Positions 1,921-60,829 of a stretch of DNA of 64,000 nucleotides are shown piece after piece. Within the stretch, counting starts at the first letter, position 1. Each line of letters opens with the position of its first letter. The notes below the pieces were generated by a model, which made no database searches, had not been told where the DNA came from, and saw only the letters and a list, made by a program, of their open reading frames with translations. This stretch comes from Chiloscyllium plagiosum. Its lineage: Eukaryota. Made by a program: the position numbers and the translations under genes. The DNA lies in NCBI RefSeq assembly GCF_004010195.1, contig NC_057718.1, positions 5,933,110-5,997,109 of the forward strand, written 5' to 3'.

Positions 1921-1934
1921 AGTATGCAAACTCA

Positions 1935-2052
1935 GTTCTGAGGAAGGGTCACTGGACTAGAAAAGTTAACTTTAATTTCTGTCCACAGATGCTGCCAGAC
2001 CTGCAGAATTTCTCCAGCAATTTCTGGTTGTTTCTGATTGACAGCATCTACA
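1935..2052 (+). mobile_element. Short Penelope-pLTR-like element with a degenerate hammerhead motif (family D)
   Basis: gtt-CTGAGGA-a-gggtc-actg-gacta-GAAA-agtt-aac followed by cacagatgctgccagacctgc. Related copies at 7885-8060, 44225-44285 and 59193-59400. Confidence 0.65.
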
Positions 2053-7348: not shown

Positions 7349-8779
7349 CATCATATTTCAAAGGCAAGGAAACTCTGATCAAATCCTTGACAATGATTAA
7401 AAGCTTTGGAGGATCAATTTACTTTTATTTACTTTTATTTAGATTTATTAGTTATCCTAGAAGGGCTAGATTTCAGGGCAATACACTCTCCTTAAACGAG
7501 TCAGAGGAAAGAATCAAAAGGGTGATGGGGGTTGGATGACACTCCATATCTCTGTTCAGTTGCACGAGCCTTAGTGCAGCCAGGGTTAAAAATCAAGATA
7601 ATCCACAGGCTGGGAGCAAGTGTTCAAGTCCTGCCATGACATTTGAATTTGATAAAAATCTGTAATTCAAGATTAGCCTGGAGTTATATCTCCTCCTCAC
7701 ACAGAGATATTACCACTGTGCTCCTGACTCCACTAAGGCTAGCTTGACTGTACGACTGTAGTTTAAAAGCTCATCTGCTTCACTAATACTCTTTTGGAGA
7801 AACAAATCTGCTGCCCTTACCTTGTCAGGCCGACATATGACTCCAGATCTACAGCAGTGTGATTGACTCTCATCACCGTGTAATACTGCAGATGCTGAAA
7901 GTCTGAAACAAACATAGAGGATGCTGGAGAAACTCAGCAGGTCTGGCAGCATCTGTGGCGAGAGGAATGGAAGAAGAGTCGCTGGACTCAAAACATTAAC
8001 TGTGCTTCTCAATCTACAGATGCTGCCAGACCTGCAGAGTTTCTCCATCAATTTCTGTCTCTTGGGCTGACTCTTAACTGACCATCCAAAATGGTTGAGG
8101 CAGTCACTCAGGTCAAAGGGCATTTAGGGATGGGAAATTAATATTGGCCCAGCCAGTAATACCCACATCTTGTGAACTTTATTTTTAAAGCTAGACAGAA
8201 CACTATGTTTACTGACAAAGTTTATATGTGAATAATCTTGACTGAGGTGAGATAATGAAGAAATTCTGGTTCCAGTCAAGTTTAAATTTGACTTGAAAAG
8301 TTCGATAGTTGAACTCTCAGAGCACAAAGCTCGAATCAAAATGTTCTGCTGCATTTTTTTCAGTGAAGTCAATCTGGATCCTTATAACCTTTGCCTCCAT
8401 TCTTAACTAAGGATGTAACTGGGCGCTTTCCAACTAAAATATTGTTGAAAAAAGAACACATTTTGTCAAGCCTTTTGCTTTGCACTCTTTAAGATATTGC
8501 ATTTAAACCATAAATTCAAGCGGAAACCCAGCATTCATATTGTGTGAGAGGGGAGTGCTGATTAGTTGCCAACACAACTTTGATCAGTAGAGATATTGCC
8601 ATGGAGAATGCACCCATTCATGCTGATTGACAGTTAACAGCCAGGCTTTGTTTAAATTTTAAAAGGCAGGTTAACTGATTGGTCCAAGAATTGCCTCTAA
8701 GGAATGGACCAGCATATGGCTATCACCTATTATGTTGGGTTGAAACAGGCTCATATTGTGCACAGTTATAGATAGGATC

Positions 8780-14200: not shown

Positions 14201-14300
14201 CGGTAAATGGCGTTGAAACGCCATCAGCCATGATTAAATAGTGGAGTGGACTCAATGGGCCGAATGGCCTTACTTCCGCTCCTATTTCTTATGGTATTAT
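11267..14300 (+). mobile_element. 5'-truncated CR1 LINE: ORF1 C-terminus, APE endonuclease, RT with a large internal deletion, 3'UTR
   Basis: MVCCLPGARVQD..VVVHVGTNN, LYLNA, GITETW, IMGDFN, GSDHNMV, NYRSISLTSVVGK joined directly to LGG..LQKDLD, FFSQRVVGLWNSLP, tail ttatgg repeats. Confidence 0.92.
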
Positions 14301-15887: not shown

Positions 15888-16073
15888 CAAAGTTTACAGA
15901 GGGCAGAAGGTCACTTTTGAACAGTGAGTTCAAGCATTGTTCCTAATATGTTTAGAGACCACATGGTAATGAAATTAGGAAAATAAAACTTATGATCTAT
16001 CAGACCAGGTTGAGCTCAAAGATCTGACTGTATTACCATGATCTGGAATCATGACTTAAGTAAAAAGCAAGAG

Positions 16074-18602: not shown

Positions 18603-18619
18603 AAAAAGCAAGAGAAGAA

Positions 18620-24474: not shown

Positions 24475-25140
24475 GATGTGGCATCCCGTCACTAGGTCAC
24501 CCTTTATTTCTTTGTGTACTGTACACTGATTGTAGCCAGCCAGCTTGGAGTCAGTCCTCAACTGAGGAGATTCTAATCTCCCAACCTTTTTTTCTTTTCC
24601 TTTCAAGTACACTGGTTGTGGCCAGGCAGCTCGAAGTCAGTCTTCAAATTTTCATCTCTTGATTATATATTTTTTTGAACAATGCACTTGGCTCTGGCCA
24701 ATCAGCTCGAAGTCAGTCCCTGAACTGAGGAGATTATAAATCTCCGAGTTATACTTCTTTTTTTCCCATCAGTGCCAGTGGCTGCAGCCATCCAGTTCAG
24801 GAAGCAGCTTGAACAAACAGCGGTACACATTGGCTGCAGCAGCACAGCCAGCACAGAAATCAGTTCTCCAGTAGTACACACTGGATATGTGACCAGCCAG
24901 CTCAGAGTCAGTCCTCTGAATTGAAGAGATTCTAAATCCCCTGGTTAGATTTTGTTAATCAAATCATCCTTTATTTACTACTGTAACGTACACTGTCTGT
25001 AGCCAACCAGCTTGGAGTCAGTTATCAACTGAGGAGATTCTAATCTCCATTTTTTTCTTTTCTCGTACATGTGGTCAGTCAGCTCAGAATTAGTCTTTAA
25101 ACTGAGGAGATCATAAATCTCCTGGTTATAGTTTTTTCCT
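24475..25140 (-). repeat. Gypsy-LTR-related sequence with ~8 degenerate tandem 60-110 bp units
   Basis: Starts with atcccgtcactaggtcaccctttat, the reverse complement of the LTR at 33290-33315. Repeated tacactg..g.cc..ccagct..gagtcagtcctcaactgaggagattctaatctcc units. Confidence 0.75.
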
Positions 25141-25220
25141 TTTTCATTAATTTACTTTTCTTTTCAATTGTCCACAATATAATAAGGGACAATTCCTGAA
25201 CTGAATTGAAATGAATTGAA

Positions 25221-26198
25221 ACTGCCATTCCTAGATGTCACAGTAGAGTGAACAGCCAATGGGGAATTTCAAACAGAAAAACAACACATACGGACCAAAT
25301 ACTGAACTACAGAAGCAATCATCCCAACACCCACAAATGAAGCTGCATCAGAACATTATTTCAATGAGCCAACACACAATGCAGCACAAAAGAGCTACGC
25401 AGAGCAGAGGAAAATCACCTATACCATGTATTCAAAAAGAATAGGGACCCAATGACCACAGTCCACCGATTTCTCAGCAACAAACTCAAACAAGCAGACA
25501 AGACATGTCCAAAAACCCTAGCCACTCTCCCCTACATCAAAGGCATCGCAGAAATGACTGCCAGAATACCCAGACCCCTTGGCATCATGGTAGCCCACAA
25601 ACCCACCTACACACTAAAACAGCAGCTAATGAACTTGAAAGACCCTATACAGACAACGAGCAAAACTAATGCCATTTACAAAATACCGTGCAAGGACTGT
25701 AACAAACACTACATTGGACAAACAGGCAGAAAACTAGCCACCAGGATACATGAACACCAACTAGCCACAAAAAGACATGACGCTCTTTCACTAGTATCCT
25801 CACATATGGATGAGGAAGGACACTGCTTCGACTGGGACAACACATCCATCCTAGGACAAGCCAAACAAAGACACACAATAGAATTCCTAGAAGTATGGCA
25901 TTCCAACTGGAACTCTATCAACAAACACATCGAGTTAGACTTCATCTACCACCCCCTGAGAAAAGGAACAGAAAGTGATTTCACCACAGGAAATAACATC
26001 ACCACAGGGAATGACATCATCAACCCAAAGAAACCCAATCATATAAATAGAAAGCAGGAATTTTCAGCATTGCTTCACATGAGGTCCACTGAAGATGTTA
26101 CCTAGATAACAAAATGTCTGGAAATGAACCTTTCAGCTCAGTGAGCAAACCTATATCCAAAACCTCAACCTGAGCTACAAATCTGCTCAAAACTCACT
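25221..26198 (+). mobile_element. 5'-truncated Penelope-like element (GIY-YIG region plus pLTR)
   Basis: LPFLDVTV, TLPYIKG, NAIYKIPCKDCNKHYIGQTGRKLATRIHEHQ (ORF 25452-26105). TSD atgaattgaa at 25211-25220 and 26199-26208. Damaged hammerhead motif at ~26087-26120. Confidence 0.92.
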
Positions 26199-26974: not shown

Positions 26975-27365
26975 TGGTATCCCGTCACCAAGTCCCCCTT
27001 TCTTTAACATTCCTGATGAAGGGCTTATGCCCGAAATGCTGATTTTCCTGCTCCTCCTGCTTCTCGGATGCTGCCTGACCTGCTATGTTTATCCAGCACC
27101 ACATTCTCAACTCTGATCTCCAGCATCTGCAATCCTCACTTTCACCTCGCTCAGAGTCAGTCCTCAACTGAGGAGATTCTAATCTCCAGGTTATTTTTTT
27201 TTGCATAGTACACTGGCTGTGGCCAATCAGCTCAGAGTCAGTCCCTGAACTGAGGAGATTATAAATCTACTGGTTATGTCGGTCAGCCAGGTCTTTCCTG
27301 ATTTGACCAAGTTAACAACCCTAATCAAGGATCTAATAATCAACAAGACCAAGTTGGTTACAATC
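26975..27365 (-). mobile_element. Gypsy-type LTR fragment interrupted by a family-C hammerhead element (27010-27148, plus strand)
   Basis: ctggtatcccgtcaccaagtc matches LTR 33297-33318 in reverse. The insert begins ttc-CTGATGA-a-gggc-ttat-gccc-GAAA-tgct. Confidence 0.75.
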
Positions 27366-29553: not shown

Positions 29554-29683
29554 AGGCGAAAGTGAGCACTGCAGATGCTGGAGATTAGGGTGGAGTGTGT
29601 GGTGCTGGAAAAGCACAGCAGGTCAGGCAGCATCCGAGGAGCAGGAAAATTGACATTTCAGGCAAAAGCCCTTCATCAGGAAA
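29554..29683 (-). mobile_element. Family-C short hammerhead element
   Basis: Minus strand: ttc-CTGATGA-a-gggc-tttt-gcct-GAAA-tgtc, then ctgctcctcggatgctgcctgacctgctgtgcttttccagc. Confidence 0.8.
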
Positions 29684-32600
29684 TTGAGAACTGGGTAAAT
29701 CCACGTCATGATTTTTAACTAAGTTAAGATGATTGACAGAGGCATCTGACTTTGGTTTAAGCCTTAATGAGACGCTGAGTGACTGTTTGATAATTGAGAT
29801 TAATGGTGTGAATGTACAAAAGTGCCCAATAGCTGTAGCCCAGATGGACATCAAACAAGCACTACAGCTGGCTTTATCATTGGAGAAAGTAGCAAGTGGA
29901 GCATGTGAGTTGTAGACTCTCGCCAGGCCGACCGAGCTTGGGGAACACCGCTTGAGTGAAGGCGGTTGCACAGCCTCACTCAGGACATATCCTGAGCAGA
30001 GGGAGTCTCGGTCAGCCCACAGCAAAACTCCAAAACAAAGCCAAGCTTCAGCCAAATGGTTAAAAGTATTTTTCAGGATCCAGGCTGGAGAGTTTTTGTA
30101 GTTGCTGCTGGAATGAGGACTTGAGACAGCAAAAGAGACTCACTAGATTAAATTGAGTAAAGGAAGTTAGAAGCTGGTGTCCGGGAGAGTGCACACACTG
30201 GAAAGTTCACTTACATCTGATTTGAAACAGTTAAGTTGCATAGCAATATCCAAATCAGAACCAATCAAAATAAATGTCTGATTAAATGGTCACCCGGTTC
30301 TAATGGAGGTCAATACTAGTGCAGCCAGTTCAGAGATTGCTGAACTAGTCTTTAACTGAATTCCCTCTGGATTCCAATCTGTAAGTTTGCCAGTTGACCA
30401 GGAAGCAATTCCATGATTCTGCAAGGTCCACCCAGTGCTATTTGTCTTAGAGACAAAAGTGGAGGCAGAAATCAGGAAGTTGGAAAGTGAAGGCTTCATC
30501 AAACCAATGTGGTGTGAGGAATGGACAGCACCTGTCATACCAATTGGGAGCCCAATGGGCTAGTTCCCCTTTGTGTGGATTTTAAATTAATGATAAACTG
30601 CTTCTCACAGCTGGATAAATACCCAGTCCCTCACAGAGAGGATTTATACACAGAGCTGGCAGGGGGAGCTGTCCTTCAGGAAGCTGGACATGAACCATGT
30701 GTCCATGCAATCCATCAGGGTTTGTATAAATATCCCAGACTGTCATCTGGGGTATTGTCAGCCTGTGCAAGTTTTCAGCAGATGATGGAGAACATTTTAT
30801 AAGGTGTACCCCAGGTCACCATTTATCTAGGTAACAAGGAAGACCAGTTAGGAGCATTTAGAGAACTTGGACATAGCCCTTAGGTGTTTGTCCCAGGCGA
30901 GTGTATGCCTTAGAAGGGAAAAATGTGTATTCCAGGCCCCACAAGTGGCCTACTTGTGTGACAGAATCAACAAGACCAGGTTATACCGGTGGAAGATAAA
31001 CTGAGGGCAACCAAAGGTGCCCCAGTTCCCACATCAGTACAACAGTTTAGATTGTCCTCGAGCTGGTGAATTATTGCGGAAAGTTCACACATAACCTGGC
31101 CTCCATCCTGGCACCTTTGCATCACCTCCTAAAAAAGGGGTCAGCCTTAGAAATGGTCACGTAGCCAAGCTATAGCTTTCAGGGAAGAGAAGAAACAGTT
31201 ATCATCCTCGAAGGTGTTGGCACATTATGATCCCAAGCGAGATCTGGTATTGATATGCGGTGCCTCTGCATGTGGCATCAGGGTAGTATTTGTTCATAGG
31301 TGGCCCAATAGAGAGGAACACCCAATAGTGTATGCATCCAGGACTTTGGCTAATGCAGGGTGTAAATATGTTCAGATAGAGAAGGAAGGTTTGGCGGTCA
31401 TACTTAGAGTCAGGAAGATCCAACAATTTACTGATGTAGATTTGTAACAATAATGGACACAAACCCCTGCTAGGTCTATTTAAGAGGACATGGCAGTACC
31501 ACCCATAGCTTCAGACCAAATTCTATGGTTGATCCTAATACTAAGTCATAACAAGTTGGAACATTGTCCAACAGGCAAAGTAGCAAATGCTGATACATTG
31601 AGCTGCCTCTCACTGGCAGATACACAACCGATGGTACGGCCACTGGAAGAGTCTGTAATGGTTCACATTTTCTGGACACACTTCCAGTCACAGCTGACAA
31701 TATCAGACTTCGGAAGCAGAAAGTTCCAATCCTGGACAAATTGAAGCAGCTGGTGGTGATGGAGAAACCAAAGGGCGGTCAAAACCAGAATTGAAACCTT
31801 TCTGGACCCGAAGAAATTAGATCACATGTTATTATGGAGAGCAAGAGGGATTGTCCTGAGCAAAGGTGTCACCACACACTGGCTGAACTCCACCGGGGGT
31901 GGGGAGGAGGGAGGCTCCAGGGGTTTCCAAAATGGAAATCTTGGTGAGATGTTATGTCTGGTGGCTAGGATTGGATGGAGACATAGCTGCATTGGTGGGG
32001 GCAATACCCAGAGTGCCAGCAAGGTCAAACGTTGCCACCAGCTGCTCCCCCACATTCGTTGGAATGGTTGGGTAAACCCTAGACTCAGTTACACATTGAC
32101 TGTGCAGGCCCTTTCATGGGCTCAATGTTCTTAATCACTGTGGACGCCCACTCAAAGTGGCTGGACATGTACGAGTTCATTCGTCAAACATGGGGACAGC
32201 GATAGAAAACCTGCACGCAATTTTTGCAATACACATGCTCCCGGAATTGTTGGTCATGGATAACAGGCCATCATTTACCAGCAGAGAATTTGAATATTTC
32301 CTAAACTCAAATGGTATTCAACATATAAGGACAGCTCTATACCATCCATCATCCAATGGTCTGGCACAAAGAGCAGTCCAAACTTTGAAGGACGGCTTAA
32401 AGAAACAGCCTACAGCTTCACTCAATACCAAACCATCCCGGTTCCTGTTTGATTATAGGGCCACCCTTCAAGCAACAACAGGGACAGCTCCAGCAGAGTT
32501 ACTAATGGGGAGAAGACTCCACTCCAGGTTAAATCTGATCTTCCCGGCCTTGGCTGGGGAGGTGAGTGAAACAGCATCAGGAACACCAATGCTGGACACA

Positions 32601-34070
32601 CAACTCTGTTAAGTGAGGGAGATAGTTTACTTCAGGGGACAAAGTTTGATATCAGAACCATAGGAATGGCCCTGCATGGATTGAGGCATGGTCAATGTGA
32701 GGTCATGTGCAGTGGCATACAAGGTTCGGGTAGGTCCTGAACTAGAACACGGACCATATGAAAGCTGCAAACTTGCAACAGTGTGAATTCAAACTGTGAC
32801 CAGTTCCTTGACAGTCTTTCTGACTGTTTGAGAACCTGTGGGCCCTCCCTCTCAGTCAAGTGCTGAAGATACCTCAGATTCTGAAATTGACACAGTGGAC
32901 GTCACCACTTTGATGCCTTTACTGCCAGAAGAGGAGAATGAATTTCTTCCGAGACACTCCAGGCAGAAAAGGCAAGCTATGGTCTGGTACATACCAGCCA
33001 CATCCGAGGCAGGGTTGGAGGAACCCGATCCAGTGCCAAAACACCCGCAGGAGGTGCTACAGTAATAGGACAAGCCTATATCCTCTGACTCAGTGTGGGG
33101 GATGCAGTGATTGTAGTGAGATCAGCCAGGGGACTTCATAGAATATGAGTTTCCTGATTGGGCCACATTAACAGCCCCAATCAGGGAGCCCTGACTGACA
33201 GATACAAACAGGAGCATCAGAGATTCTGTTCACTCTGAGAGCTGGCTCTGAGAGAGCTGGGTCAGTGTCAAGGACTCTCCATGTGTAGATAAAGGGTGAC
33301 TTGGTGACGGGATACCAGCCTGTGTGGAATTATTTCAGACTGAAACAGGAAAAGGGCTGTTTTAAAAACCAAGGACTGAGAAAAGATTACTGCATTTTTT
33401 TAAAAAAGCATATCACTTGCAGCTCATTATGAGTATTTTTTACACTGCTGTTTGTTCAAGCAGTGGAGGAAGTTACTGCAGCCAAGAACAGACCAGCAAC
33501 AGGTAGCTGATTGGTCTGTGGATTGGTGACCAGTTGTCTGTGACAAAGGCCTTCTGCCTGACAACAACGATGTGATAGGCTCCCTAGTTGCTGAACAGCT
33601 TGTGGATATGAATGTTTTGTCAGTAACTATCAGACCTCGCGAGGGGAAAGAGCTATTTCTGCTCTTGCAATTGAAAACACATCAAGCTAAAAGATAGTCA
33701 GTTTATTTCCATATACCATTTGCTGTAAGCTGTGACTCTTAATCAGCAAAACAGAGATTTTATACATGTGAGCCAGTCACTCTGTACCTTCTGCACGCAA
33801 GTGAAAGAGAAGAAAACTCAAGGATCAGCATGCCCTGACAAACCAAGAAGTTCATCTCAGTAAACCCTATAAACAGGGACCAATGAACTACTTTCCCCGT
33901 CTTTTCCTCCATCTATAACACCCACTTGTTTTTGTGTCTCTATCTGCATGTGTGTGCAAGGGGAAGTTTAAAAGGGGGTTAGGGTTTTAACTAGTAGTGT
34001 TAAATGTCCATGTGTAATAATCATTTACCTGTAGTTAAAATCTACTAATTTTTAATAATTGTCATCCTTC

Positions 34071-35606: not shown

Positions 35607-35762
35607 GAAATGATGACTGACCTTCCCTGATCTACCCACATGCTGAAATGATGACTGACCTTCCCTGATCTACCCACATGCTGAAATGATGACTGACCTT
35701 CCCTGATCTACCCACATGCTGAAATGAGACTGACCTTGCCTGATCTACCCACATGCTGAAAT
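35607..35762. repeat. 38-bp minisatellite, 4 copies (gaaatgatgactgaccttccctgatctacccacatgct)
   Basis: Three identical units plus a fourth with two changes. Confidence 0.95.
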
Positions 35763-40619: not shown

Positions 40620-42255
40620 AGGTGAAGCCATATTGGATTTGGTACTGGGAATGAACAAGGCCAGGTTTAGATTTGGAGGTAGGTGAGAGCATTTTGGTTA
40701 TAGTGACCACAATTCGGTTATAGTGACCACACTTTGGTTATGTTTACTTCAGCAATGGAAAGGGATAGGTATATACCACAGGCAAGAGTTGTAGCTGGGG
40801 GAAAGGCAATTATGAGGCGATTAGGCAAGATTTAAGATGCATAGGATGGGGAAGAAAACTGCAGGGGATGGACACAACTGAAATGTGAAGCTTGTTCAAG
40901 GTACAGCTACTGCATGTCCTTGATAATCGTGTGCTGCCAGGCAGGGAGGAAGTGGTTGAATGAGGGAACCATGGTTGTAAAGGTGTTGTAAGAAGACAGA
41001 GGGTGGTGGTTATTGGGAAATGTTCATCCGGGAGTTCAGTTACTAGTGGTGTATCACAAGGATCTGTTTTGGTTTAGTAAATTTGCGGATGTTACTAGAA
41101 TTGGTGGAGCTGTGGACAGTGCGGAAGGATGTTGCAGGTTACGGAGGGACATAGATAAGCTGCAGAGCTGGGCTGAGAGGTGGCAAATGGAGCTTTATTC
41201 CGGAAAATGTGAGGTGATTCACTTTGGAAGGAGTAACAGGAATTCAGAGTACTGAGTTAATGGTAAGGTTCTTAGTAGTGTGGATGAGCAGAGAGATTTC
41301 AGTGTCCATGTGCATCAATCCCTGAAAGTTGTCACCCAGGTTGACAGGGTTGTTAAGAAGACGTATAGTGTGTTAGCTTTTATTGGTAGAGAGGTTGAGT
41401 TTCGGAGCCATAAGGTCATCTTGCAGCTGGACAAAACTCTGGTGCGGACTCATTTGGTGCATTGTGTATAGTTCTGGTTGTCCCACTATAGGAAGGATGT
41501 GGAAGCTTTGAAAAGGGTTCAGAGGACATTTACCAGGATATTGCCTGGGATGGAGGGAATGTCTTATGAGGAAAGGCTGAGGGACTTGAGGCTGTTTTCG
41601 TTAGAGAGTAAAAGTTTGAGAGGTGATTTATTAGAGACATACATGATGATCTGAGGATTAGATAGGGTGGGCTGTTAAAGTCTTTTTCCTTTGATGGTGA
41701 TGGCTAGCATGAGTGGACATAGCTTTAAATTGAGGGGTGATATAGATATAGGACGGATGTTAGAGATAGATTCTTTACTCAGAGAGCAATAAGGGCATGG
41801 AATGTAGTAGTAGGCCACAGTAGTAGACTTGCCAACTTTAAGAGCATTTTTGGCAAGAGTTGTGATGGGACCTGATCTCCGACCACCTCCTCAGCAAGAC
41901 AGACCATGGCTTTGCAGTTTCCCACTGATGATACAGGATTCCCCTGACTGTGAGGCATCAGGCTGGGTGGGAAGGCATTTAGTCATCGGTCAATTCAGGG
42001 AGGGGCAGTGGTGAGTCAGGGTGTGCCAGTACCATCAGCGATGGACACAGCAGAAACACAGTCCACAGGCTTGGCCACAGACAGCTGTTCTTTTGGTATA
42101 CATACAGTCCAGGGGATCTGCGGTCTGGGGAATGGACAGGGGTCAGTTCATTGAGAATGGAATAGTGTAGGTTAGATGGTCTTCAGATTGGTTTCACAGG
42201 TCAATGCAACATCAATGGCCAAAGGGCCTGCACTGCATTGTAATGTTCTATGTTC
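40620..42255 (+). mobile_element. Internally deleted CR1 ORF2 plus 3' end, interrupted at 41848-42149 by a copied genomic segment
   Basis: ILDLVLGN, SDH, SKFAD.TRIGG..DIDKLQSWAERWQM..KCEVIHFG; taatgttctatgttc tail. Confidence 0.85.
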
Positions 42256-43097: not shown

Positions 43098-43809
43098 CGG
43101 TGGTTAGCACTGTGGCCTCACAATGTCAGGGACCCAGGCTCGATTCCACCCTTGGGCGACTGTTGGAGTTTGCACCTTCTCCCTGTGTCTGCTTGGGTTT
43201 CCTCCATGTACTCTGGTTTTCTCCCACAGTCCGAAAATGTGCAGGTTAGGTGGATTTGCCATGTTAAATTATCCGTAGTGTCCAGCGATGTGCAGGCTAG
43301 GTGGATTAACCATGGGAAATGTAGGGTTACAGGGATCTGAAAGAGATGCTCTTCAGGCAGATGTAGACACGATGGGCTAAACAGCTTCTTCCTGTATTGG
43401 AGGAATATTTTGGCAAGAGTTGTGATGGGACCTGATCTTCGACCACCTCCTCAGCAAGACGGACCATGGCTTTGCAGTTTCCCACTGATGATACAGGATC
43501 TGCTTGGGTTTCCTCCATGTACTCTGGTTTTCTCCCACAGTCCAAAAATGTGCAGGTTAGGTGGATTTGCCATGCTAAATTATCCGTAGTGTCCAGGGAT
43601 GTGCAGGCTAGGTGGATTAACCATGGGAAATGTAGGGTTACAGGGATCTGAAAGAGATGCTCTTCAGGCAGATGTAGACACAATGGGCTAAACAGCTTCT
43701 TCCTGTATTGGTGGAATATTTTGGCAAGAGTTGTGATGGGACCTGATCTCCGACCACCTCCTCAGCAAGACGGACCATGGCTTTGCAGTTTCCCACTGAT
43801 GATACAGGA
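43098..43809 (+). repeat. HE1 SINE whose 3' part plus flank is tandemly duplicated (311-bp period: 43188-43498 and 43499-43809)
   Basis: Two near-identical copies of tctgcttgggtttcctccatgtac...cactgatgatacagga. Confidence 0.93.
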
Positions 43810-45709
43810 TTCCCCTGACTGTGAGGCATCAGGCTGGGTGGGAAGGCATTTAGTCATCGGTCAATTCAGGGAGGGGCAGTGGTGAGTCAGGGTGTGCCAG
43901 TGCCATCAGTGATGGACACAGCAGAAATACAGTCCACAGGCTTGGCCACAGACAGTTGTTCTTTTGGTATACATACAGTCCAGGGGATCTGCGGTCTGGG
44001 GAATGGACAGGGGTCAGTTCTGTGAGTCCGGCAGCGGCAGTCAGAGGAATCATGGATCATCTGTCAAAGAGCTGCTGTTGTACAGGTCAGAGTCTGGCCT
44101 GTCATTGTCTAGGAGTGCTAGTTGAAATCAGTAGGAAGCCTGGGGCCAGTACGATCCTGGGGCCTGCCTGGTGATCATTATGGAGGGTGGAAACGGGTCT
44201 TGTAAGGCAATGGAAGACTTCTTCAGCTCTGAGGAAGAGTCATATTGGACATGAAATTTTACTTCTGTTTCTCTATCCACAGACATTGCATTTTTTAAGA
44301 AATCAAGGCTTGAAATCACTTGGATTTACATTGTACAGAAATCATTGTTGTTTGAAAGGATCTAGGATGCAGAAAGATAAGGTTTTGATTGGATTTATAT
44401 TATGATATTAGAAACTTTACTGAAAAGTATGGTTAAAAGCAGCTCACACAAATCAGCTGCCTGCAGTGAAGTAAATACTAACTATAAATCTTGTTAAAAT
44501 AGCATTCTTATTGAAAGGAAACCCTGATATAAAAGACAGGACAGACAAGAATATTGTGTACTTGAAGCCTTATCTTTGGTTTATTAAGCCCCACATCCAA
44601 CTGTTGCAATCATGGAAATTGGAAACATCAGTTGACTAAAACATTCCAGGCTTATGCTAAAATGTCACCAAGACTTTTTTCTCTTTATTCATTTGCAGGA
44701 TGACAGTGTCGCTGACTAGGCAGCATTTATTGCCCAGAGGGCAGTTAAGAGTCAACCACATTGTTGTGGGTCTAGAGTCACATGTAGGCCCGACCAGGTA
44801 AGGATGACAGATTTCCTTCCCTGAAGGGAATTAGTGACCCAGATGGGTTGTAGTTTGTAAATATCAGAGCACAGGAACAGCAAAGGCTAAATCATTGCAA
44901 TTGTGCCGAATGAAGCTCATCTCTGTAGAATTTCAACACTCTAATACATTATTCTAGCTCAATTTTAATGCCAGTAATGGTTTCCATCTAACAAATTCAT
45001 CCAGATGGAATAAAGAATCTCATTCTAATACCCGTTCTCAAATATATGTTCTTTTCTCATTTGCATTTGTATTCTTTGGTTCCACTAATCTAATTTGTGA
45101 AGAATTTTACTTACAATCAGAATTAGTTTGCATCATTAATTCCATATCTATGACATACTGTATTGTCAAAAGGCAGAAATTCCAGGGAATGATAATACAG
45201 GCAACTTAATGGCATTAAGTAGGTGGGCCATAATTTGCTGAAATTGTTGAGTTCCACTGAGACTCCCACTGATAAAGTTCCAGTAACTAATTATCATAGT
45301 ATTGAACCAAATTGTTCATAATCTTGAATGCCAAGGTTTAATTTTCCAAATTAATGCTACTGTGATCCCATCAGACCCTTAGATCATTGGGGAATATGAC
45401 CAGTGAGCTCACAACAAAGGAAAACATCTTTAGTGAAGGGAGGTAGTGGTGTAGTTTTAATGTCACTGGACATGTAATCCCAAACCCCAGGCTAATGTTG
45501 TGAGGACATGGGTTTGAATTTCATCGTGCCATTTCATAAAAGTCTGGAACAAAAAGCTGTCCTAATGGTGACCAGGTAACCATTGATGATTGTTGGGAAA
45601 ACCCATCCCAGTTCACCAATGTCCTTTAGGGAAGGAAACTGCCATCCTCACCCGATCTTGTGGACATGTGACTCCAGACCCACAGCAAAGTGGTTCACTC
45701 TTAACTGCC

Positions 45710-46225
45710 CCTGATTGATTGGTCGATTGATTTATTTATTGTCACATGTCCAAAGTATGGTGAAAAGATTTGTTTATAAGCAGTACAGGCAGATCAAACT
45801 AAGTAAGAATGTGCAGAACAAAAGATGAAGGCATGAAGGTAACATTGCACAGGGTGTACAAGAGAGATCAACTTTAGCAAGGTCCTCATCGTTTGAGGCT
45901 AGACAGTCCATTCAACAGTTGAGAGTGTGATGCTGGAAAAGCACAGCCAGTCGGCAGCATCCGCAGTCCTGCATCCGCTGATCTCCAGCATCTGCAGTCC
46001 TCACTTTCTCCTAGTTGATTATAACCTTACTGCGAAGCCTCTTCCAAGGATGCCTACCTTAAAGAAGTTCTCCTGGATGCTGCCTGACCTGCTGTGCTTT
46101 TCCAGCACCATGCTCTCGATTCTGATCTCCAGCATCTGCAGTCCTCACTTTCTCCTGGTCCATTCAATTGTCTAATAACCAATTGTCTGGGAAGGAGCAG
46201 TCCCTGAAACCACTGGTGTGTATGC
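45710..46225. mobile_element. Rex1/Babar 3' tail (minus) with an inserted mosaic of family-C fragments (~45920-46157)
   Basis: Junction duplication gtccattcaa (45906 and 46158); tccagcatctgcagtcctcactttctcct occurs twice, with an inverted piece at the start. Confidence 0.7.
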
Positions 46226-47364: not shown

Positions 47365-48870
47365 GTCATAGAATCATAGAGCCATACAGCATAGAAACAG
47401 ACCCTTCAGTCAACCAGTCTCCACCAACCTTGTTCCCAAATCAAACTAATCCAACTTACCTATGTTTGACCCACATCCCTCCAAACATTTCCTATTCATT
47501 TACTTATCCAAATGTCTTTTAATGTTGTAACTATACCAGCATCTACCACTTCCTCTGGCAGTTCATCCTACTACGAACCACCCTCTGTGAAAGAAAAGTT
47601 ACCCTTCGTGTCCTTTTTAAACCTTTCTCCTCTCACCTGAACAATATGTCCCCTAGTTTTGAACTCTCCAACCCTAGGGAAAAGACCCTTACTATTCACT
47701 TTATTCAACATGATATCCCAACTCCTATACTGTAAGTTCTGAGCAATGAAGGCAAGCGTGATAAATGCTTTCTTAACCACCCTGTCTATATGTGATGCAA
47801 ATTTCAAAGAGCTATGTACCTGCCCCCGTAGATCTCTGTCCTACAACATTACCCTGAGCCCCACCATTAATTATATAAGTCCTGCCTTTGACTTTTTTTA
47901 CTAAAATGCAATACCCCTCATTTATCCAACTTAAACTCTATCTGCCCCTTCTCAGCCCAATGACCCAATTAATCAACATCTCTTTGTAGTCTTAGATGGT
48001 CTTTTTCACTGTCCACTCCACCACCAATTTTGGCATCATCTCTAAGCTTACTAACTGTATTTCTTAAATTTTCATCCAAATTGATCATATAAATGAAAAA
48101 CAAAAGTGGCTCCAATATCGATCCATGTGGGACATTGCTGGTCACAGGGCTTCAGCCTGAAAAACAACCCTCGACCACCACTCTCTGTCTCCTACCATCA
48201 AGCCAATTGGCAAGCTCTCCCTGAATCCTATGTGATCCAACGTTACCAATCAGTCTACCACGAGGAACTATGTCAAAGACTTTACTAAAGTCAATGTAAA
48301 CCACGTCTTCTGCTCTGCCCTCATCAACTTTTCTAGATTAGAGGGCTTTTGCCCGAAACATCGATTTTCCTGATCCTCGGATGCTGCCTGACCTGCTGTG
48401 CTTTTCCAACACCACTCTAATCTAGACTCTGATTTCCAGTATCTGCAGTCCTCACTTTTGCCTCATCAATCTTTCCCTCGCACAAAGCCATGCTGACTAT
48501 CATTAAACAGTCCTTGTCTCTCCAAATGCATGTAAATCCAATCTTTCAGAATCACCTCCCACAATTTATCCATCACCGATGTCAGACTCATGGGTCTGAG
48601 TTCCCAGGCTTCTCCTTACAGCTTTTCTTGTCCGTCTGACGAGACTCCTTCCGATAAGCCTGGGAATGAAGACCTATGAGTCTGACATTGGTGATGGATA
48701 AATTGTTGGAGATGATTCTAAATGATAGGATTTACATGCATTTGGAGAGACAAAGACTGTTTAAGGAAAGTCAGCATGGTTTTGTGCGAGGGAAATCATG
48801 TCTCACAAACTCAATTAAGTTAACCAGAAAGATTGATGAGGCAGAGCAATAAGCGTGGTTTACATGGACT
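47365..48870 (-). mobile_element. CR1 RT/3' fragment (minus, 47365-48630) with an inverted RT piece (plus, 48656-48870) and a family-C insert (~48340-48462)
   Basis: IDRVVKKAF.TLAFI..LFPRVGEFKTRGH; SQHGFVRGKSCLTN on the plus-strand arm, with the homologous sequence on the minus-strand arm. Confidence 0.85.
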
Positions 48871-49509: not shown

Positions 49510-49841
49510 GCCCAACATGAGCAAAACTAATGTAGTGTACAAAATACCATGCAAGGACTGCACAAAACACTATATAGGACAAACAGGAAGACAGCTAACA
49601 ATCCGCATACATGAACATCAACTAGCCACGAAACGACACGACCAGCTATCCTTAGTAGGTAGCGGCAGGGACAGACCACTATAAACACCGGAGGAAACAT
49701 CAAAGAAGCGCTTCGCAGGAGGCTCCCAAGCACTGATGATGTCGCCTAGCCAGGGGACGAAACGTTTGCAACAAAAACTTCCAGCTCGGCGAACAGAACC
49801 ACAGCAACGAGCACCCGCGCTACAAATCTTCACACAAACTT
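49510..49841 (+). mobile_element. Short Penelope insertion in CR1 ORF1 (GIY-YIG remnant plus pLTR), 12-bp TSD
   Basis: NVVYKIPCKDCTKHYIGQTGRQLTIRIHEHQ; TSD tgaccaaaaggt at 49498-49509 and 49842-49853. Confidence 0.92.
49730..49769 (+). ncRNA. Minimal hammerhead ribozyme motif (family B, core intact)
   Basis: Identical to 5297-5336: gcaCTGATGAtgtcgcctagccaggggacGAAACGTTtgc. Confidence 0.8.
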
Positions 49842-52800
49842 TGACCAAAAGGTAGAGAAAGAGTAGGAAGGCAGTGCAGTAGTCCCCTATGGTCATCTCC
49901 ATCCAAAACAGGTCTACCATTTTGGATATTGTTGTGGGAGATGGCTCACCAAGGAGGGCAGCAGTTGCCAGGTTCCTGACATCGCGGCGGGCACTGCTGC
50001 TCAGTAGGGCTGGAAAAACAGTGGAAGGGTTATAGCAATAGGGGATTCTATTGTAAGAGGAGTAGCTAGGTGGTTTATGGCTGAAAACGAGACTCCCAGA
50101 TGGTATGTTGCCTCCCAGCTCAGGTCAGGGATGTCACTAATTGGCTGCAGAGCATTCTGAAAGGGGATGGTGAACAGCCAGTTGTCGTGGTACATATAGA
50201 CACCAATGATACAAGTAAAAACAAAACGAGATGAGGTCCTGAAAACAGAATTCAGGGAGCTAGGAGAGAAGTTAAACAGGAGGACCGCAAAGGTAGTGAT
50301 CTCAGGATTGCTACCACACCACATGCTAGCCAGGGTAGAAATGAAAGAATAAGCAGGACGAACACGTGGCTTGAGGGATGGTGTAGGAGGGAGGAGTTCA
50401 GATTTGTGGGACATTGGGACTAGTTCTGCGGAAGCTGGGACTATTACACATTGGATGGTCAACATCTGAACCAGACTGGAACTAATGTCCTTGGGGGAGT
50501 TTATGCTACTGCTGTCGGGGAGGGTTTAAACTAATGTTGGGGGGGCTGGGAATCAGAAGCGAAGACTAGTAGACAGTGAGGTGGAAAACAGAGACTGTAA
50601 GGAACAAGATCATGAAGTTAGCATTACCAAAGGGAAGAGTAGGCAGAGGGCAGATGAACACAAAGGAACCGGTGGTCTGAAGTGCAGATACTTTAATGCA
50701 AGGAGTATAGTGTGAAAGGCAGATGAATTTAGGGCTTGGATTGGTGCCTGGGAGTATGATGTTATTGCGATCACAGAGACTAGGTTGAAGGCAGGGCATG
50801 ATTGGCAACTAAATGTTCCAGGATATAAATGCTTCACACAGGACAGAAAGGGAAGTAAAAGTGGAGGGAGGAATTGCATTGCTGGTCAGAGATGATACCA
50901 CGGCTATGCTAAAGGAGGGCGCTATGGAGGGCTTGAGCAGTGAGGCATTATGGGTAGAGCTGAGAAATAAGAAGGGTGCAGTTATATTGTTGGGGCTGTA
51001 CTACAGGCCTCCCAACAGTGAGTGTGAGGTAGAAGAACAAATAGGTAAACAGATTATTGAAAGATGTAGAGGCAACAGGGTGGTGGTGATGGGAGATTTT
51101 AATTTTCCCAACATTGACAGGGATATACTTAGTGTCAGAGGTCTGGATGGGGCAGAATTTGTAAGGAGCGTCCAGGAAAGTTTTCTAGAGCAGTATGTCA
51201 ATAGTCCAACTAGGGAAGGGGGCATATTGGACCTGGTGTTGGGGAATGAGCCAGGCCAGGTGGTAGAAGTTGCAGTGAGGATTTCTTTGGGAATAGTGAC
51301 CACAATTCTGTAAGTTTTAGAATACCCGTGGACAAAGAAGAGAGTGGTTCTAAGAGAAGAGTACTAAACTGGGCCAAACCAATTTTATCAAAATTCGACA
51401 GGAGTTGGGAAATGTGGACTGGGGGCAGCTATTTGAAGGGAAGTACCTATTTGATATGTGGGAGGCTTTCAAAGATAGGTTGAAGATAGTGCAGGATAGA
51501 CATGTCTCTTTGAAAACAAGGGCTAGGAAAGGCAAGATTCATGAACCGTGGATGACAGGAGAAATTGTGCGATTAGCCAAGAGGAAAAGGGAAGCGTACA
51601 TAAGGCCCAGGCAGCTAAGAACAGAACAGGCTTTAGACGAATATTGGGAGAGTAGGACCAATCTTAAATGAGGAATCTAGTGGGCTAAAAAGGGTCATGA
51701 AATAAATTTAGCGAGCAGAATTAAGGAGAATCCCTTATATAAGAAGCAAGAGGATAACTAGAGAAATTTGGTCCACTAAAGGATAATGAAGGAAGGAAAC
51801 CTGAGAAAATGAGTGAGATATCAATGATTACTTTACATCAGTGTTCATTGAGGAGAGGAACATGATGAATATTGAGATTAAAGATAGAAGTTTGTTTACT
51901 CTGGATCATGTTGACATAAGCAGGGAAGATGTGTTGGGTAGGCTAAAGGATATTAAGAAGGACAAATCTCCAGGACCAGATGGGATCTATCCCAGGTTGC
52001 TGAGGGAGGCGAGAGAGGAAATAGCTGGGGCCCTGACAGATATCTTTGTAGCATTCTTAAACACAGGTGAAGTGTCAGAGGACTGGAGAGTTGCTAATGT
52101 TGTCCCCCTGTACAAGAAGGGTAGTAAGGATATTCCAGGTAACTACAGACCAGTGAGCCTGATGTCAGTGATGGGAAAGTTGCTGGAGAAGGTACTGAGG
52201 GATAGAATCTATTTATATTTGGAAAAGAATGAGCTTATCAGTGATAGGCAACATGGTTTTGTGCGGGGGAGATCGTGCCTTACCAACTTAATAGATTTCT
52301 TTGAGGAAGTGACCAAGTTGATAGATGAAGGAAGATCTGTTGATGTCATATACATGTACTTTAGTAAGGTGTTTGATAAGGTTCCCCGTGGTAGACTAAT
52401 GGAGAAAGTGAAGTCACATGGTGTGCAGACTGTTCTAGCTAGGTGGATAAAGAACTGGTTAAGCAACAGGAGACAGAGAGTTGAAGGGTGTTTCTTGAAA
52501 TGGAGAAAGGTGACCAGTGGTGTTCCACAGGGGTCAGTATTGGGGCCACTGTTGTTTGTGATATACATATATGATCTGGAAGAGGGCATTGTTGGTCCGA
52601 TCAGTAAGTTTGCAGATGACATGAAGATTATGGAGTAGCAGAAAGCATAAGGGACTGTCAAAGAATACAGGAGATTATAGATAGACTAGAGAGTTGGGTG
52701 GAGAAGTGGCAGATGGAGTTCAATCTCGGCAAATGTGAGGTGATGTATTTTGGGAGGTCTAATTTGAGAGTGAACTATACTGTAAATGGAAGAGCCTTGG

Positions 52801-53884
52801 GAAAGGTTGATGAACAGAGAGATCTGGGAGTTCAGGTCAATTGTACCCTGAAGACGGCTGCACACGTGGATAGAGTGGTCAAGAAGGCATATGGTATGCT
52901 TGCCTTCATTGGACATGGTATTGAGTATAAGAGCTGGCAAGTCATGTTAAATTTGGTACAGCTGCATTTAAAATACTGTGTACAGTTCTGGTCTCTATAT
53001 TACCAAAAGGATGCAGGCGCTTTGGAGAGAGTGCAGAGAAGGTTTACGAGGATGTTGCCTGGTATGGAAGGTGCTAGCTATGAAGAGAGGTTGAGTTGGT
53101 TAGGATTGTTTTTATTAGAAAAAAGGAGATTGAGGGGGGATCTGATTGAGGTCTATAAAATCATGAAGTGTATAGACAAGGTGGTTAGGGATGAACTTTT
53201 TCCCAGGGTGAGGGATTCAATAATGAGAGGTCATGCATTCAAGGTGAGAAGAGAAAACTATAAGGGGGATACACGTGGAAAGTACTTTACACAGAGGGTG
53301 GTAGGTGCCTGGAACACATTGCCAGCAGAGTAGCAGTAGCAGGCACGGTCTATTCATTTAAGATGAATTTGGACAAATGTATGAGTAGGTGGGGAGCAGA
53401 GGGATACAGATCTGTGGGATATAAATGAATTAATGTTATTTCTGCAAGTATAAATTCTGATACAGAATAGGAATGCATTCAAGGTGAGAAGAGAAAACTA
53501 TAAGGGGGATACACGTGGAAAGTACTTTACATAGAGGGTGGTAGGTACCTGGAACACATTGCCAGCAGAGTAGCAGTAGCAGGCACGGTCGATTCATTTA
53601 AGATGAATTTGGACAAATGTATGAGTAGGTGGGGAGCAGAGGGATACAGATCCTTAGGAATTGGGTTTAGACAGTGGATTTGCCTATAGGTGTATAAATA
53701 AAAAAGAAGCTGTTATTCAGATATTTGTCTCGGACTGAAATTATTAAAGTGAGTGAGCTTTTGTTTCTCACAGATCCTTAGGAATTGGGTTTAGACAGTG
53801 GATTTGGATTGGCACATGCTTGGAGGGCCGAAAGGTCTGGTCCTGGGCTGTAAATTTTCTTTGTTCTCTTTGTTCTTTGTTCTT

Positions 53885-56412: not shown

Positions 56413-56540
56413 AGGCGAAAATGAGGATTGCAGATGCTGGAGATTAGAGTCGAGAGTTTGGTGCTGGAAAAGCACAGCAGGTCAGGCAGCATCCGAGGAG
56501 CAGGAGAATCGGCGTTTCGGGCAAAAGTCTTTCATCTGAG
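56413..56540 (-). mobile_element. Family-C short element (hammerhead core mutated)
   Basis: gcagatgctggagattagagtcgagag..aagcacagcaggtcaggcagcatccgaggagcaggagaatcggcgtttcgggc. Confidence 0.8.
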
Positions 56541-57269: not shown

Positions 57270-58890
57270 CATAGAACATAGAACATAGAACAGTACAGCA
57301 CAGAACAGGCCCTTCAGCCCACGATGTTGTGCCGACCATTGATCCTCATGTGTGCACCCTCAAATTTTTGTGACCACATGCATGTCCAGTAGTCTCTTAA
57401 ATGTCCCCAGTGACCTTGCTTTCACAACTGCTGCTGGCAATGCATTCCATGCTCTCACAACTCTCTGTGTAAAGAACCTGCCTCTGATATCCCTTCTATA
57501 CTTTCCTCCAACCAACTTAAAACTTTGTATTAGCCATTTCTGCCCTGGGAAATAGTCTCTGGCTATCACCTCTATCTATGCCTCTCATTATCTTGTATAT
57601 CTTAATTAGGTCCCCTCTCCTTCTTTTCTCCAATGAAAAACGTCTGAGCTCAGTCAACCTCTCTTCATAAGATAAGCCCACCAGTCCAGGCAGCATCCTG
57701 GTAAACCTCCTCTGAACCCTCTCCAAAGCATCCACATCTTTCCTCTAATAGGGCGACCAGAACTGGACGCAGTATTCCAAGTGCGGTCTAACCAAAGCTG
57801 CAACAAGATCTCACGACTCTTAAACTCAATCCCCCTGTTAATGAAAGCCAAAACACCATATGCTTTCTTAACAACCCTGTTCACTTGGGTGGCCATTTTA
57901 AGGGATCTATGGATCTGCACACCAAGATCCCTCTGTTCCTCCACACTGCCAAGAATCCTATCCTTAATCCTGTACTCAGCTTTCAAATTCGACCTTCCAA
58001 AACGCATCACCTCGCATTTATCCAGATTGAACTCCATCTGCCACCTCTCAGCCCATCTCTGCATCCTGTCAATGTCATGCTGCAGCCTACAACAGCCCTC
58101 TAACGACACCTCCAACCTTTGTGTCGTCTGCAAGTTTGCTGACCCATCCTTCAATCCCCTCATCCAAGTCATTAATAAAAATTACAAAGAGTAGAGGCCC
58201 ACGAACAGAGCCCTGTGGAACACCACTCACCACAGACTTCCAAGCAGAATATTTTCCTCCTGCTACCACTTGCTGTCTTCTGTTGGCCAGCCAATTCTAT
58301 ATCCAGACAGCTAAGTTCCCCTGTATCCCATTGCTCCTGACCTTCTGAATGAGCCTACCATGGGGAACCTTATCAAATGCCTTGCTGAAGTCCATATACA
58401 CCACATCCACAGCTCGACCCACATCAACTTTTCTAGTCACATCCTCAAAGATTTGTGAGGTTTGTGAGGCATGACCTGCCCCTCACAACGCTGTGTTGAC
58501 TGCATTTAATCAAGCCATGCTCTTCCAGATGGTGATAAATCCTATCCCTAGAATCCTTTCTAACACCTTGCAGGCGACAGACGTGAGACTCACTGGTCTG
58601 TAATTGCCGGGGATTTCCCTATTTTCTTGCTTGAAGAGAGGAATTACATTTCCCTCTCTCCAGTCCTCAGGTACGACTCCAGTGGAGAGCAAGGATGCAA
58701 AGATCTTCACAAGTGGCGAAGCAATTGCATTTCTCATTTCCCAAAGCAGCCGAGGACAAATCTGTTACGGGCCTGGCGACTTGTCAATCTTAATGCTTGA
58801 CAAAATTTTCAGTACATGAGTTTCCTCTATCTCTATCCATTCCAGCATTCACACCTGCTCTTCAAAGGTTTCATTCACTACAAAGTTTAT
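57270..58890 (-). mobile_element. 5'-truncated CR1 (RT plus 3'UTR)
   Basis: [58 protein letters not shown]; (tatgttc)n tail. Confidence 0.93.
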
Positions 58891-59192
58891 TTCTTTTGTT
58901 AATACTGTGAGTCCATGTAATACATAACAGAGTGATAGTACACATTTCATTTTGGCAGTTTGAGAATTTGAATGCATTGAAAAAGTCTGTAAAGCTGGTA
59001 TCAATAAAAGTGATCTTAAATGTTCACTAATTTAATGAAGAAAGTCTGTCATCATTGCCCAGTGTGTGGGCACTGCACGTGACTTCAACCATATATCAGG
59101 TGGCTGACTTTTAGTTGCCTACTTATGTAGCCTACCTGACAATTTGAATTATATTGGAGCCCCTGGTGAGTGTCAGGGGATTCGTTAGCTCA

Positions 59193-59400
59193 GAAACAGA
59201 AACAGAAGTTGCTTCTAAAATCTCAGCAGGTCTGGCAGCATCTGTGAAAAGAAATCAAAGTTAACATTTCAGGTCGAGTGACCCTTCCTCTGAGGAATGT
59301 TAACTTTGATTTCCCTTCACAGATGCTGCCAGACCTGCTGAGCTATCAGAAGCAATTTCTGTTTCTGTTCCTGATTTACAGCATCTGCATTTCTTCTGGA
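59193..59400. mobile_element. Palindromic head-to-head family-D element inserted in a SINE (59170-59620)
   Basis: Arms ~59195-59268 and ~59297-59370; minus-strand ..GAGGAagggtc-actc-gacct-GAAAtgtt-aac remnant at the centre. Confidence 0.75.
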
Positions 59401-59640
59401 TTTTGTATGCTTGGTTATCTCGGTGGGCTGGATAATTAGCTTGCAACGCTAGTTAATAGCGTGGAATGTGTTCAGTTCCCACACCAGAAGTAATTGCCAT
59501 GAAGGACTAACCTTCTCAACCTGTCTCCTGCCTGAGGTGTGGTGGCCCTCAGGTTAAGACATCACCAGTCATCCCTGCCCAAAGAGACAGCAGCCCTATG
59601 GGCTACAGTGGCTGTGCCATTTCAGTGATTGATTAGCATT

Positions 59641-59920
59641 AGCAAGTTTTGAGAAGATTTGTAGCTCAGGTTGAGATTCTGGATGTAGGTTAGCTCGCAT
59701 TTACCACCCACTGAGAAAAAGAACAGGGAATGACATCACCAAAGGAAATTATGTCACCATAGGAAATGACATCACCAACCCAAGGAAACCCAAACATATA
59801 AATAGAAAGCAAGAAACAACAGCAGTGCTTTGTCCAGAGGCTCACTAAAGATGTTACCTAATATGGTGATAAAACATCTGAAAATGAACCTTCCAGCTCA
59901 GTGAGCAAACCTACATCCAT
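59641..59920. mobile_element. Penelope pLTR remnant (head-to-head) with approximate TSD
   Basis: Matches 16077-16130 and 18400-18600; flanks tgattagcat/tgattggcat. Confidence 0.85.
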
Positions 59921-60200
59921 TGATTGGCATGTTTAAAAACAGTGGCTGACCCATTTTTCTTATTAAGCAGGACAATGCCCTGGAAATATTTGAGTGAAAG
60001 AAATTATTAAAACACAGGAATTAACTATCCGTCAGTATGGAAGACTATGTAACATCCTCTAATTACACTCCATACATACCTAGTTCATCCAAGTTCGGCT
60101 CAACTTGTCAACCCAGATCCAACTAATACCTCACAATATCTATATACAGTGTTTACCTTCCAGAAGGCTGAAGAATTACACTTTACTGTATCAGATAAAT

Positions 60201-60293
60201 TCCTGAAGAAGGGCTTATGCCCGAAACATCGATTCTCCTGTTCCCTGGATGCTGCCTGACCTGCTGCGCTTCTCCAGCAACACATTTTCAGCT
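60201..60293 (+). mobile_element. 93-bp family-C hammerhead element with perfect 15-bp TSD
   Basis: TSD ctgtatcagataaat at 60186-60200 and 60294-60308; CTGAAGA-a-gggc-ttat-gccc-GAAAC-ATC at 60203-60230. Confidence 0.88.
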
Positions 60294-60829
60294 CTGTATC
60301 AGATAAATGTAAGATTAATAATTTATCCAATGACAGAGAAAGTCAAGATGCAAGAATACAAAAAAGACTGTAGGACTGTAACATGAGAAAGTGGAAATGA
60401 GTTAAGACTTGAAAAAATAGTTGCAGATGGTCAAACAAAGCTTGCAACAGAAAAGATTAAGTTCCTTATCTGTGTGATTGCATAGACAATTAATACCGAA
60501 TCTCTTGGTTGATGCAGGTCTCACCTTCTCACCCCCCAATCTTGTCCGAGGCATGATAACTGTTTAGAAACTAAATCCGCCAATCTTCCTCCCTCCTCTC
60601 CTCAATGTGCTCACACATGCTGTGATTATCTGGTTTCTTTTATCATGGCAGATACAAATCATTTTGTCTGGCATTAGCAGGTGAACTGATTTATAATCAG
60701 GTGCAGCCCTGTCTTTCTAACAGAGACCATCAAACCATCAGCAGGAGGCAAGCTCAGATATTCATTTCCTTTCATCAGAAATGATGCCTGGAGTGGTGTT
60801 ATCATCCTTCACAAGAAAGGCTGTATTAC

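Follow-up and report, generated by a model that had tools for sequence, protein, structure and literature searches.

Short hammerhead-tipped insertions in Chiloscyllium plagiosum and their relation to a Neptune-type Penelope-like element

The described architecture of Penelope-like elements (PLEs) comprises an open reading frame (ORF) in which a reverse transcriptase (RT) is followed by a GIY-YIG nuclease, a pseudo-LTR (pLTR), an inverted neighbouring copy, an optional tail and a short target-site duplication (TSD) of variable length (PMC8557442, PMC3846280). A cysteine linker ahead of the GIY-YIG domain marks Neptune and Nematis and is absent in Penelope/Poseidon (PMC8557442). The shark family described here resembles these EN+ elements as the same two papers set them out: it has the RT, a CX2-5CxxC linker, a GIY-YIG domain with two internal cysteines and a pLTR hammerhead, together with heavy 5′ truncation, an adjacent inverted copy, an optional 30-40-bp tail, short variable TSDs and solo pLTRs. 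It is unlike those descriptions in the very high number of its short end copies, or stubs, and in a sharp 5′ end that lies 2-6 nt before the hammerhead core.

Its ribozyme motif agrees with the minimal hammerheads reported for metazoan PLEs, which combine a CUGANGA box, one unpaired base before helix II, a 4-bp helix I and GAAA with a palindromic ACGU, lack helix III and occur mostly as dispersed single motifs ascribed to truncated PLEs (PMC4209133). In the shark, helix II has 4-5 bp, unlike in those hammerheads, and exact matches run to tens of thousands, against about 4,000 motifs in the coelacanth and about 9,000 in Xenopus obtained by different search methods (PMC4209133). The Anolis Poseidon element PAc offers a second parallel: RT starts at two sites downstream of its hammerhead, matching genomic ends with and without the tail, and for PAc, as for the shark family, there is no sign that the ribozyme cut site makes the ends (PMC11167929). 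The ORF of PAc, a member of the Penelope/Poseidon clade, opens within the hammerhead, whereas the likely ORF start of the shark element lies about 35 nt beyond the tail.

Animal non-LTR retrozymes share with the shark stubs a type I hammerhead, short noncoding copies and a relation to pLTRs (PMC7761336; bioRxiv 10.64898/2026.07.22.740005). Unlike retrozymes, the shark family shows no tandem arrays among the neighbours listed, its ends bear no relation to the cut site, it is continuous with an ORF, and no circular RNA was seen in a poly(A) library. In the literature we covered, with Repbase, Dfam and subscription journals outside its scope, there is no report of this shark family or of a pile-up of 5′ ends at a PLE hammerhead.

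The 93-bp insert and its relatives in the window

The window is the whole stretch that was analysed, 64,000 nucleotides of C. plagiosum (NC_057718.1, 5,933,110 to 5,997,109). Signed positions refer to the hammerhead box CUGANGA, whose initial C is position 0 and corresponds to 60203 in the window. A sequence-only reading had proposed a 93-bp insert that starts 2 nt before CTGAAGA and is flanked by a perfect 15-bp TSD, and exact 15-mers at 60186-60200 and 60294-60308 confirm it. By alignment the insert (60201-60293, plus strand) is a pLTR 3′ end that runs from -2 to +90 and has the short, tail-less 3′ end. Two nucleotides, AT, are common to the TSD and the element, so its 5′ start may be placed anywhere from -2 to -4.

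Under the definition of PMC4209133, a minimal type I hammerhead motif occupies 60203-60234 on the plus strand, with CUGAAGA, a 4-bp helix II and GAAA. The predicted cut, after GAAAC-NUH, falls between +27 and +28, at 60230/60231. The insert begins about 30 nt before this point; cleavage therefore did not make its 5′ end. Core boxes, helix II, a short helix I and the palindromic 15.2-16.2 positions are all present in the family, and helix II of this copy folds. Its palindromic ACGU has been lost (it reads ACAU) and its 4-bp helix I holds one mismatch, so that, to judge from the sequence, this ribozyme copy is probably inactive. The fold of the whole insert is nothing unusual against shuffles (z -0.74), which means that its RNA is not self-paired in the manner of a circle. 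The earlier statement that such stubs have no ORF, Pol III boxes or poly(A) held up: simple A- and B-box patterns find no match, and there is no poly(A) tail. With no tRNA gene and neither of these simple box patterns matched, the insert does not fit a tRNA-derived SINE.

None of the eight weak matches in an Rfam scan of the window is a hammerhead. A sequence pattern for the motif matches the window 19 times against 7.5 ± 2.7 in shuffles, none of 100 of which reaches 19. Across the 3.56-Gb genome, where copies were counted by exact sequence patterns, a 33-nt hammerhead pattern for families C1 and C2 matches 44,050 times and its reversed control not at all, and a motif 86 nt upstream of the hammerhead has 2,539 matches, from which 30 loci were taken. 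Here C1 denotes the family of the 93-bp insert and C2 and C3 related families; D was a separate label in the earlier reading. Breakpoints were drawn from 106 copies with a 3′ anchor (90 loci plus the window) and from genome-wide counts of exact 20-mers.

Several relatives lie in the window. One, of the same subfamily, is a 162-bp insert at 7187-7348 (minus strand; 7172-7363 with its duplications) that has lost 14 nt internally. The sequence-only reading was right that it has a 15-bp TSD of its own (exact, at 7172-7186 and 7349-7363), but this copy begins about 85 nt upstream of the hammerhead and not at it. Three older family C copies that had been said to begin at the ribozyme, near 27010, 29683 and 56540, do so: by alignment they occupy 27008-27146 (plus strand, start about -5, long 3′ end with tail), 29555-29682 (minus strand, start about -3, with tail) and 56414-56538 (minus strand, start about +2, with tail and a 9-bp duplication). 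A further family C copy with tail at 48342-48463 (plus strand) starts at about +7, and sequence comparison places head-to-head family C pieces at 45917-46155. In one part of the latter, 45978-46066, the tail gives way to about 60 nt matching the ORF-start region of loci L009 and L012; the earlier claim that the window holds no coding partner of family C thus stands for a long partner and fails for what appear to be the first ORF codons. Family D is homologous to family C in hammerhead, body and tail, as alignment of the copy at 1933-2061 (plus strand, start about -5) shows, and sequence comparison finds a D pair joined head-to-head at the hammerhead at 59190-59398. No coding partner of family D was found in the window and the 90 loci, and the seven D copies listed have nothing in common upstream of about -5.

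Other repeats were also noted. An imperfect tandem repeat family with units of about 76-81 bp occupies 24497-25137 and 27149-27277, the latter array directly after the copy at 27008-27146. A second Penelope-like family, A, is present at 16066-17571 (minus strand), 25219-26198 (plus strand), 18007-18604 and 59635-59919, with broken RT and GIY-YIG frames, its own hammerhead and no Zn linker (Penelope/Poseidon type); a first look yields more than 100,000 candidates genome-wide, and one match (L052, G000:C94027:11554-12246) sits within an open frame given as 3,731 aa long, perhaps an unusually long ORF, perhaps a masked stretch. Hammerhead copies of family B at 5181-5411 and 49513-49844 are 96-97% identical, and the former contains an almost perfect hairpin of 190 bp, whose centre lies about 22 nt upstream of its hammerhead and which accounts for spurious Rfam microRNA matches. 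By eye, a 170-aa frame at 32100-32612 (plus strand) is like the integrase core of LTR retroelements, and a 168-aa frame at L079:2162-2666 resembles a host-gene exon that encodes a PLAT/LH2 domain. RT fragments at 12516-14241, 41124-41804, 50813-53333 and 57431-58794, judged by eye, we take to be those of CR1-like LINEs. Recent local duplications at 43188-44026, 53233-53806, 35607-35762 and 41848-42155 have periods of 311, 240 and 76 bp and are 97-98% identical.

A coding partner continuous with the repeat

The search for an RT/GIY-YIG partner that the sequence-only reading had suggested succeeded elsewhere in the genome. Locus L086, which has no masked gap, carries RT motifs including YIDD, a thumb, a C-X4-CxxC linker, a GIY-YIG domain with two internal cysteines and a stop, followed by a pyrimidine-rich UTR of about 165 nt, a hammerhead and the same short 3′ end as the insert; frameshifts are present. 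An RT-plus-EN protein (P0019, one of the relatives described below) is matched in order up to the pLTR by L062, L066, L071 and L086, and at several loci found through the -86 motif the upstream sequence continues into coding DNA. Neither the 369-aa frame of L086 nor the translation of L082 matched a Pfam family. Among 3,701 candidates, the L086 protein has 111 longer relatives, most with RVT_1 and many with GIY-YIG, and its best relative, 77% identical, is annotated as a bamboo shark protein. The EN of L071 scores 24.2 bits against the Pfam GIY-YIG cut-off of 22.6 bits. The linker reads CNRKKCKTC in L086 and CNRRRCNTC in L071, and is followed by YCIRCxRC...YIG, REH and QHF. The linker fits both Neptune and Nematis; we prefer Neptune on the ground of vertebrate distribution (bioRxiv 10.64898/2026.07.22.740005).

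The insert is close to these loci in sequence. It is identical at 89 of 91 positions to L069 and L070, the second of which extends upstream into the last ORF codons, and at 85 of 91 and 81 of 91 positions to the ORF-linked copies L062 and L086. A 20-mer from the RT thumb occurs at least 1,494 times genome-wide, a lower bound because of masked stretches. No intact full-length element is among the loci retrieved, where all long copies are broken, rearranged or partly masked.

The copies also show the anatomy of a PLE. Their 3′ ends fall into two discrete positions about 34 nt apart, near +90 and +124, without and with the tail (among 106 copies, 45 short at +84 to +100, 51 long at +117 to +126 and 10 elsewhere). 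In L009 and L012, both C2, and at 46023 in the window, the tail joins a likely ORF-start sequence, which places the unit ahead of the ORF as well, the arrangement of a pLTR. The ORF-start motif itself occurs 1,334 times genome-wide and stands once, judged by positions, at the expected distance behind the upstream motif of family C1, at 10789268 and 10789454 of the contig labelled C1. Neighbours within 500 bp, counted among 100 listed matches for each of three probes from the first 3-5 Mb of that one contig, are head-to-head in 15, 9 and 9 cases and on the same strand in 1, 1 and 1. Of 50 rows, 16 have a TSD, whereas 20 controls with swapped flanks gave 0-3. The rows come from 93 copies, of which the rest were dropped because the 5′ flank was masked, the end lay beyond -165 or the 3′ anchor was missing; the count scores two pairs from both arms and misses duplications visible by eye in L002, L011 and L029. 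TSD lengths are 10-17 bp, with one duplication of 32 bp, and 15 bp is not a fixed length.

We conclude that the insert is very probably a 5′-truncated solo pLTR of an autonomous EN+ Neptune-type PLE. Of the two options raised by the sequence-only reading, the first, solo pLTRs from heavily truncated Penelope-like integrations, is supported by an RT and GIY-YIG ORF that occurs at other genomic loci and runs on into the repeat. The element is of a known kind and is very abundant in this genome, with tens of thousands of cut-down end copies.

Two further features were noted among related copies. In C2 an AUG inside the hammerhead box opens a 17-codon frame that stops early (L012; the region of 60209-60260 in the window). 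L012:1100-1630 and L009:1400-1900 hold internally deleted mini-elements of about 530 bp, in which tail and ORF start are followed by a jump to the 3′ UTR, hammerhead and tail; these are possible short non-autonomous derivatives.

A sharp 5′ boundary at the hammerhead

About half of the copies start a few bases before the hammerhead and not at its cut site. Exact C1 20-mers match 62,829 times from -2, 29,435 times from -6, 21,633 times from -10 and 20,448 times from -39, and a 20-mer at +71 matches 59,881 times. The probes from -2, -6, -10 and -39 recover 30, 26, 25 and 26 of 38 known long copies, similar rates that show the drop in counts not to be due to sequence variation. Calibrated in this way, each nucleotide between -2 and -10 costs about 10% of the copies, as against 0.3-0.4% per nucleotide to either side. 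A probe at +29 to +48 blurs the picture, as it matches more often than the -2 probe (100,883 times); it is more degenerate and also fits other subfamilies, and we tentatively ascribe its excess to other subfamilies and to copies that start inside the hammerhead.

The same boundary appears in 28 uncensored copies that were picked by no search (4 of 32 were dropped as censored). Ten of them start at -14 to -1, three at 0 to +12, two at +13 to +24, one at +25 to +32, seven at +33 to +60 and five beyond -150, so that 13 of the 28 have 5′ ends scattered over 0 to +60. In contigs from run X16, loose ends with unrelated flanks stand at -3 in 47 cases and at -6 in 25, with none at +28 among those listed. 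Depth across the boundary steps about 4-fold in runs X19 and X16 and about 14-fold in X6; we do not use this as main evidence, since the step is inflated by the divergence of related subfamilies upstream of -4. The preferred 5′ end is thus the 5′ edge of the hammerhead, at -2 to -6, and the cut site is not preferred. No extra cap-derived G was seen by eye at the junctions of 36 short copies.

An intron in the pLTR is a known feature of PLEs. Acceptor-like polypyrimidine tracts ending in AG stand before the hammerhead, at about -27 in L070 (C1) and about -18 in L016 (C2). A splice acceptor at these AGs was considered as a cause of the boundary and rejected, as only L013 starts there.

Candidate origins of the boundary and their meaning

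We lean slightly towards an origin in internally primed reverse transcription that runs off the RNA 5′ end at hammerhead helix I. In this view the element RNA would begin in the upstream pLTR, near A(-4), with which helix I opens. In the Anolis PLE, RT starts internally at two sites, which gives the tail, and uncleaved RNA is the main template (PMC11167929). As the pLTR also heads the transcript, two such priming sites would lie 95-130 nt from the RNA 5′ end; RT primed there would run off the end and yield a stub of 95-130 bp, and longer copies would come from priming in the downstream pLTR. The element's RT and GIY-YIG nuclease very probably inserted the stub, with a staggered cut leaving the 15-bp duplication, and ribozyme cleavage does not set the ends. 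Penelope has a TATA-less internal promoter, which lies in the pLTR beyond the start site (PMC2377424). The initiator-like motif YYANWYY has three matches in 190 nt in C1 and two in C2; in each family one of them places its A at -4, and so does a match in family D. The match is weak and of low information, and bases -4 to -1 are also constrained by helix I. The one arrangement known, that of D. virilis Penelope, is different from a start at -4: there the start lies upstream, and a 75-bp intron ends at helix I (PMC2377424, PMC4209133). This difference, together with the weak initiator, keeps our preference for the run-off step slight.

RNA reads bear on several readings. In run X19, a poly(A) single-cell library of which about 2% was read, 2,196 reads fall on L070 in both orientations, and 74% of them continue into unlike sequence; joints are only of the opposite-strand kind, like the genomic pairs, with 13 reads at one joint. 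There is no place in X19 where many molecules begin or end. None of the 2,196 reads has a go-back joint, in a poly(A) library that would hold circles and short capped RNAs poorly. The reads look like passive transcription inside host RNAs.

The boundary could instead arise at the DNA level, either because the GIY-YIG nuclease cuts cDNA or a duplex at ATT in -4 to -2 or through fold-back or template switching at the hammerhead during second-strand synthesis. We regard this, the main rival, as rather unlikely. The purified Anolis enzyme prefers to cut at 5′-ATT-3′ (PMC11167929), positions -4 to -2 read ATT in C1, C2 and C3, all nine head-to-head pairs have their joint no more than about 25 nt from the hammerhead 5′ edge (sums -20 to +27), RNA reads span such joints and the first seven hammerhead bases of the insert could pair with its last bases. 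Family D, however, has the same start and reads AGTT there, ATT also stands at +29 to +31 without a pile-up, the insert folds no better than shuffles, and from an RT that simply stalled one would expect ends where the helices have their 3′ foot (+19, +31) rather than at the 5′ edge. A further possibility, which we consider quite improbable, is that stubs of truncation origin now propagate themselves in the manner of SINEs, with RNA made from -4 by an internal Pol II promoter and copied in trans by the Neptune enzyme. Short copies exceed RT-bearing ones by tens to one, Penelope has an internal promoter that follows the start (PMC2377424), mobilisation in trans needs no more than pLTR sequences (PMC3846280), and non-autonomous derivatives of PLEs are known (PMC8557442). 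The insert's diagnostic variant is found in 2 of 30 copies with the -86 motif against 44 of 100 unselected matches, and the seven listed D copies share no sequence upstream of about -5. The -86 motif is itself subfamily-biased, however, and three common variants extend past -10 in equal shares (8 of 44, 7 of 36 and 4 of 19 copies); these equal shares, with L070 reaching the last ORF codons at 89 of 91 identical positions, indicate no short-only lineage in family C at this coarse resolution.

A non-LTR retrozyme, in which a tandem hammerhead repeat is cut to monomers that are circularised and reinserted by a PLE enzyme, is highly improbable. The minimal type I hammerhead, the TSDs and the lack of an ORF would suit it, and animal retrozymes have been proposed to derive from pLTRs, some being counted in one cartilaginous fish (bioRxiv 10.64898/2026.07.22.740005). 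Head-to-tail units define the class, though, and all three neighbour lists hold only one same-strand pair per 100 listed matches; 5′ ends lie about 30 nt upstream of the cut site, with 1 of 28 unselected starts at +25 to +32, and ends are not circularly permuted, 96 of 106 3′ ends falling in two classes. The missing go-back joints point the same way, weakly in view of the poly(A) library. The second option of the sequence-only reading, a dedicated and possibly circular RNA released by the ribozyme, is accordingly not borne out: the cut at 60230/60231 lies about 30 nt inside the insert, and the tandem copies that it had proposed to look for amount to one same-strand pair within 500 bp per 100 listed matches, over the initial 3-5 Mb of a single contig. 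Purely random 5′ truncation, in which no end is preferred, is scarcely credible. It would fit the 5′ ends that tail off smoothly over a long range, from -15 to positions further upstream than -1000, but the per-base loss is about 30-fold higher between -2 and -10 than on either side, one 14-nt bin takes 10 of the 23 unselected ends in -150 to +60 (P about 1e-6 against uniform), and the calibration on 38 long copies speaks against the -6 and -10 probes missing a common upstream variant. Random truncation of a known autonomous Penelope was what the earlier reading had set against its proposal; we find the continuity with an autonomous element but not the randomness, the ends being sharply non-random.

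A broader reading, which we rate as doubtful, joins the run-off idea with self-copying: most insertions in several families would be 'strong-stop' products ending at an RNA start on the first hammerhead base, and some stubs, above all those of family D, where no longer copies were found, could copy themselves as the smallest Pol II SINE-like PLE parasites. If so, stubs would carry the start site, promoter and priming sites complete.

The element itself is ordinary, an abundant Neptune-type family of a shark-like genome, and the useful part is its sharp 5′ boundary. How PLEs form the pLTR and what role the minimal hammerhead plays are stated as open in the literature we covered, and the boundary bears on how PLEs are copied. 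Tens of thousands of junctions lead to a precise prediction, in which the RNA would start at A(-4) and cleavage would not set the ends. If the run-off model is true, it would explain the many dispersed single minimal hammerheads in genomes.
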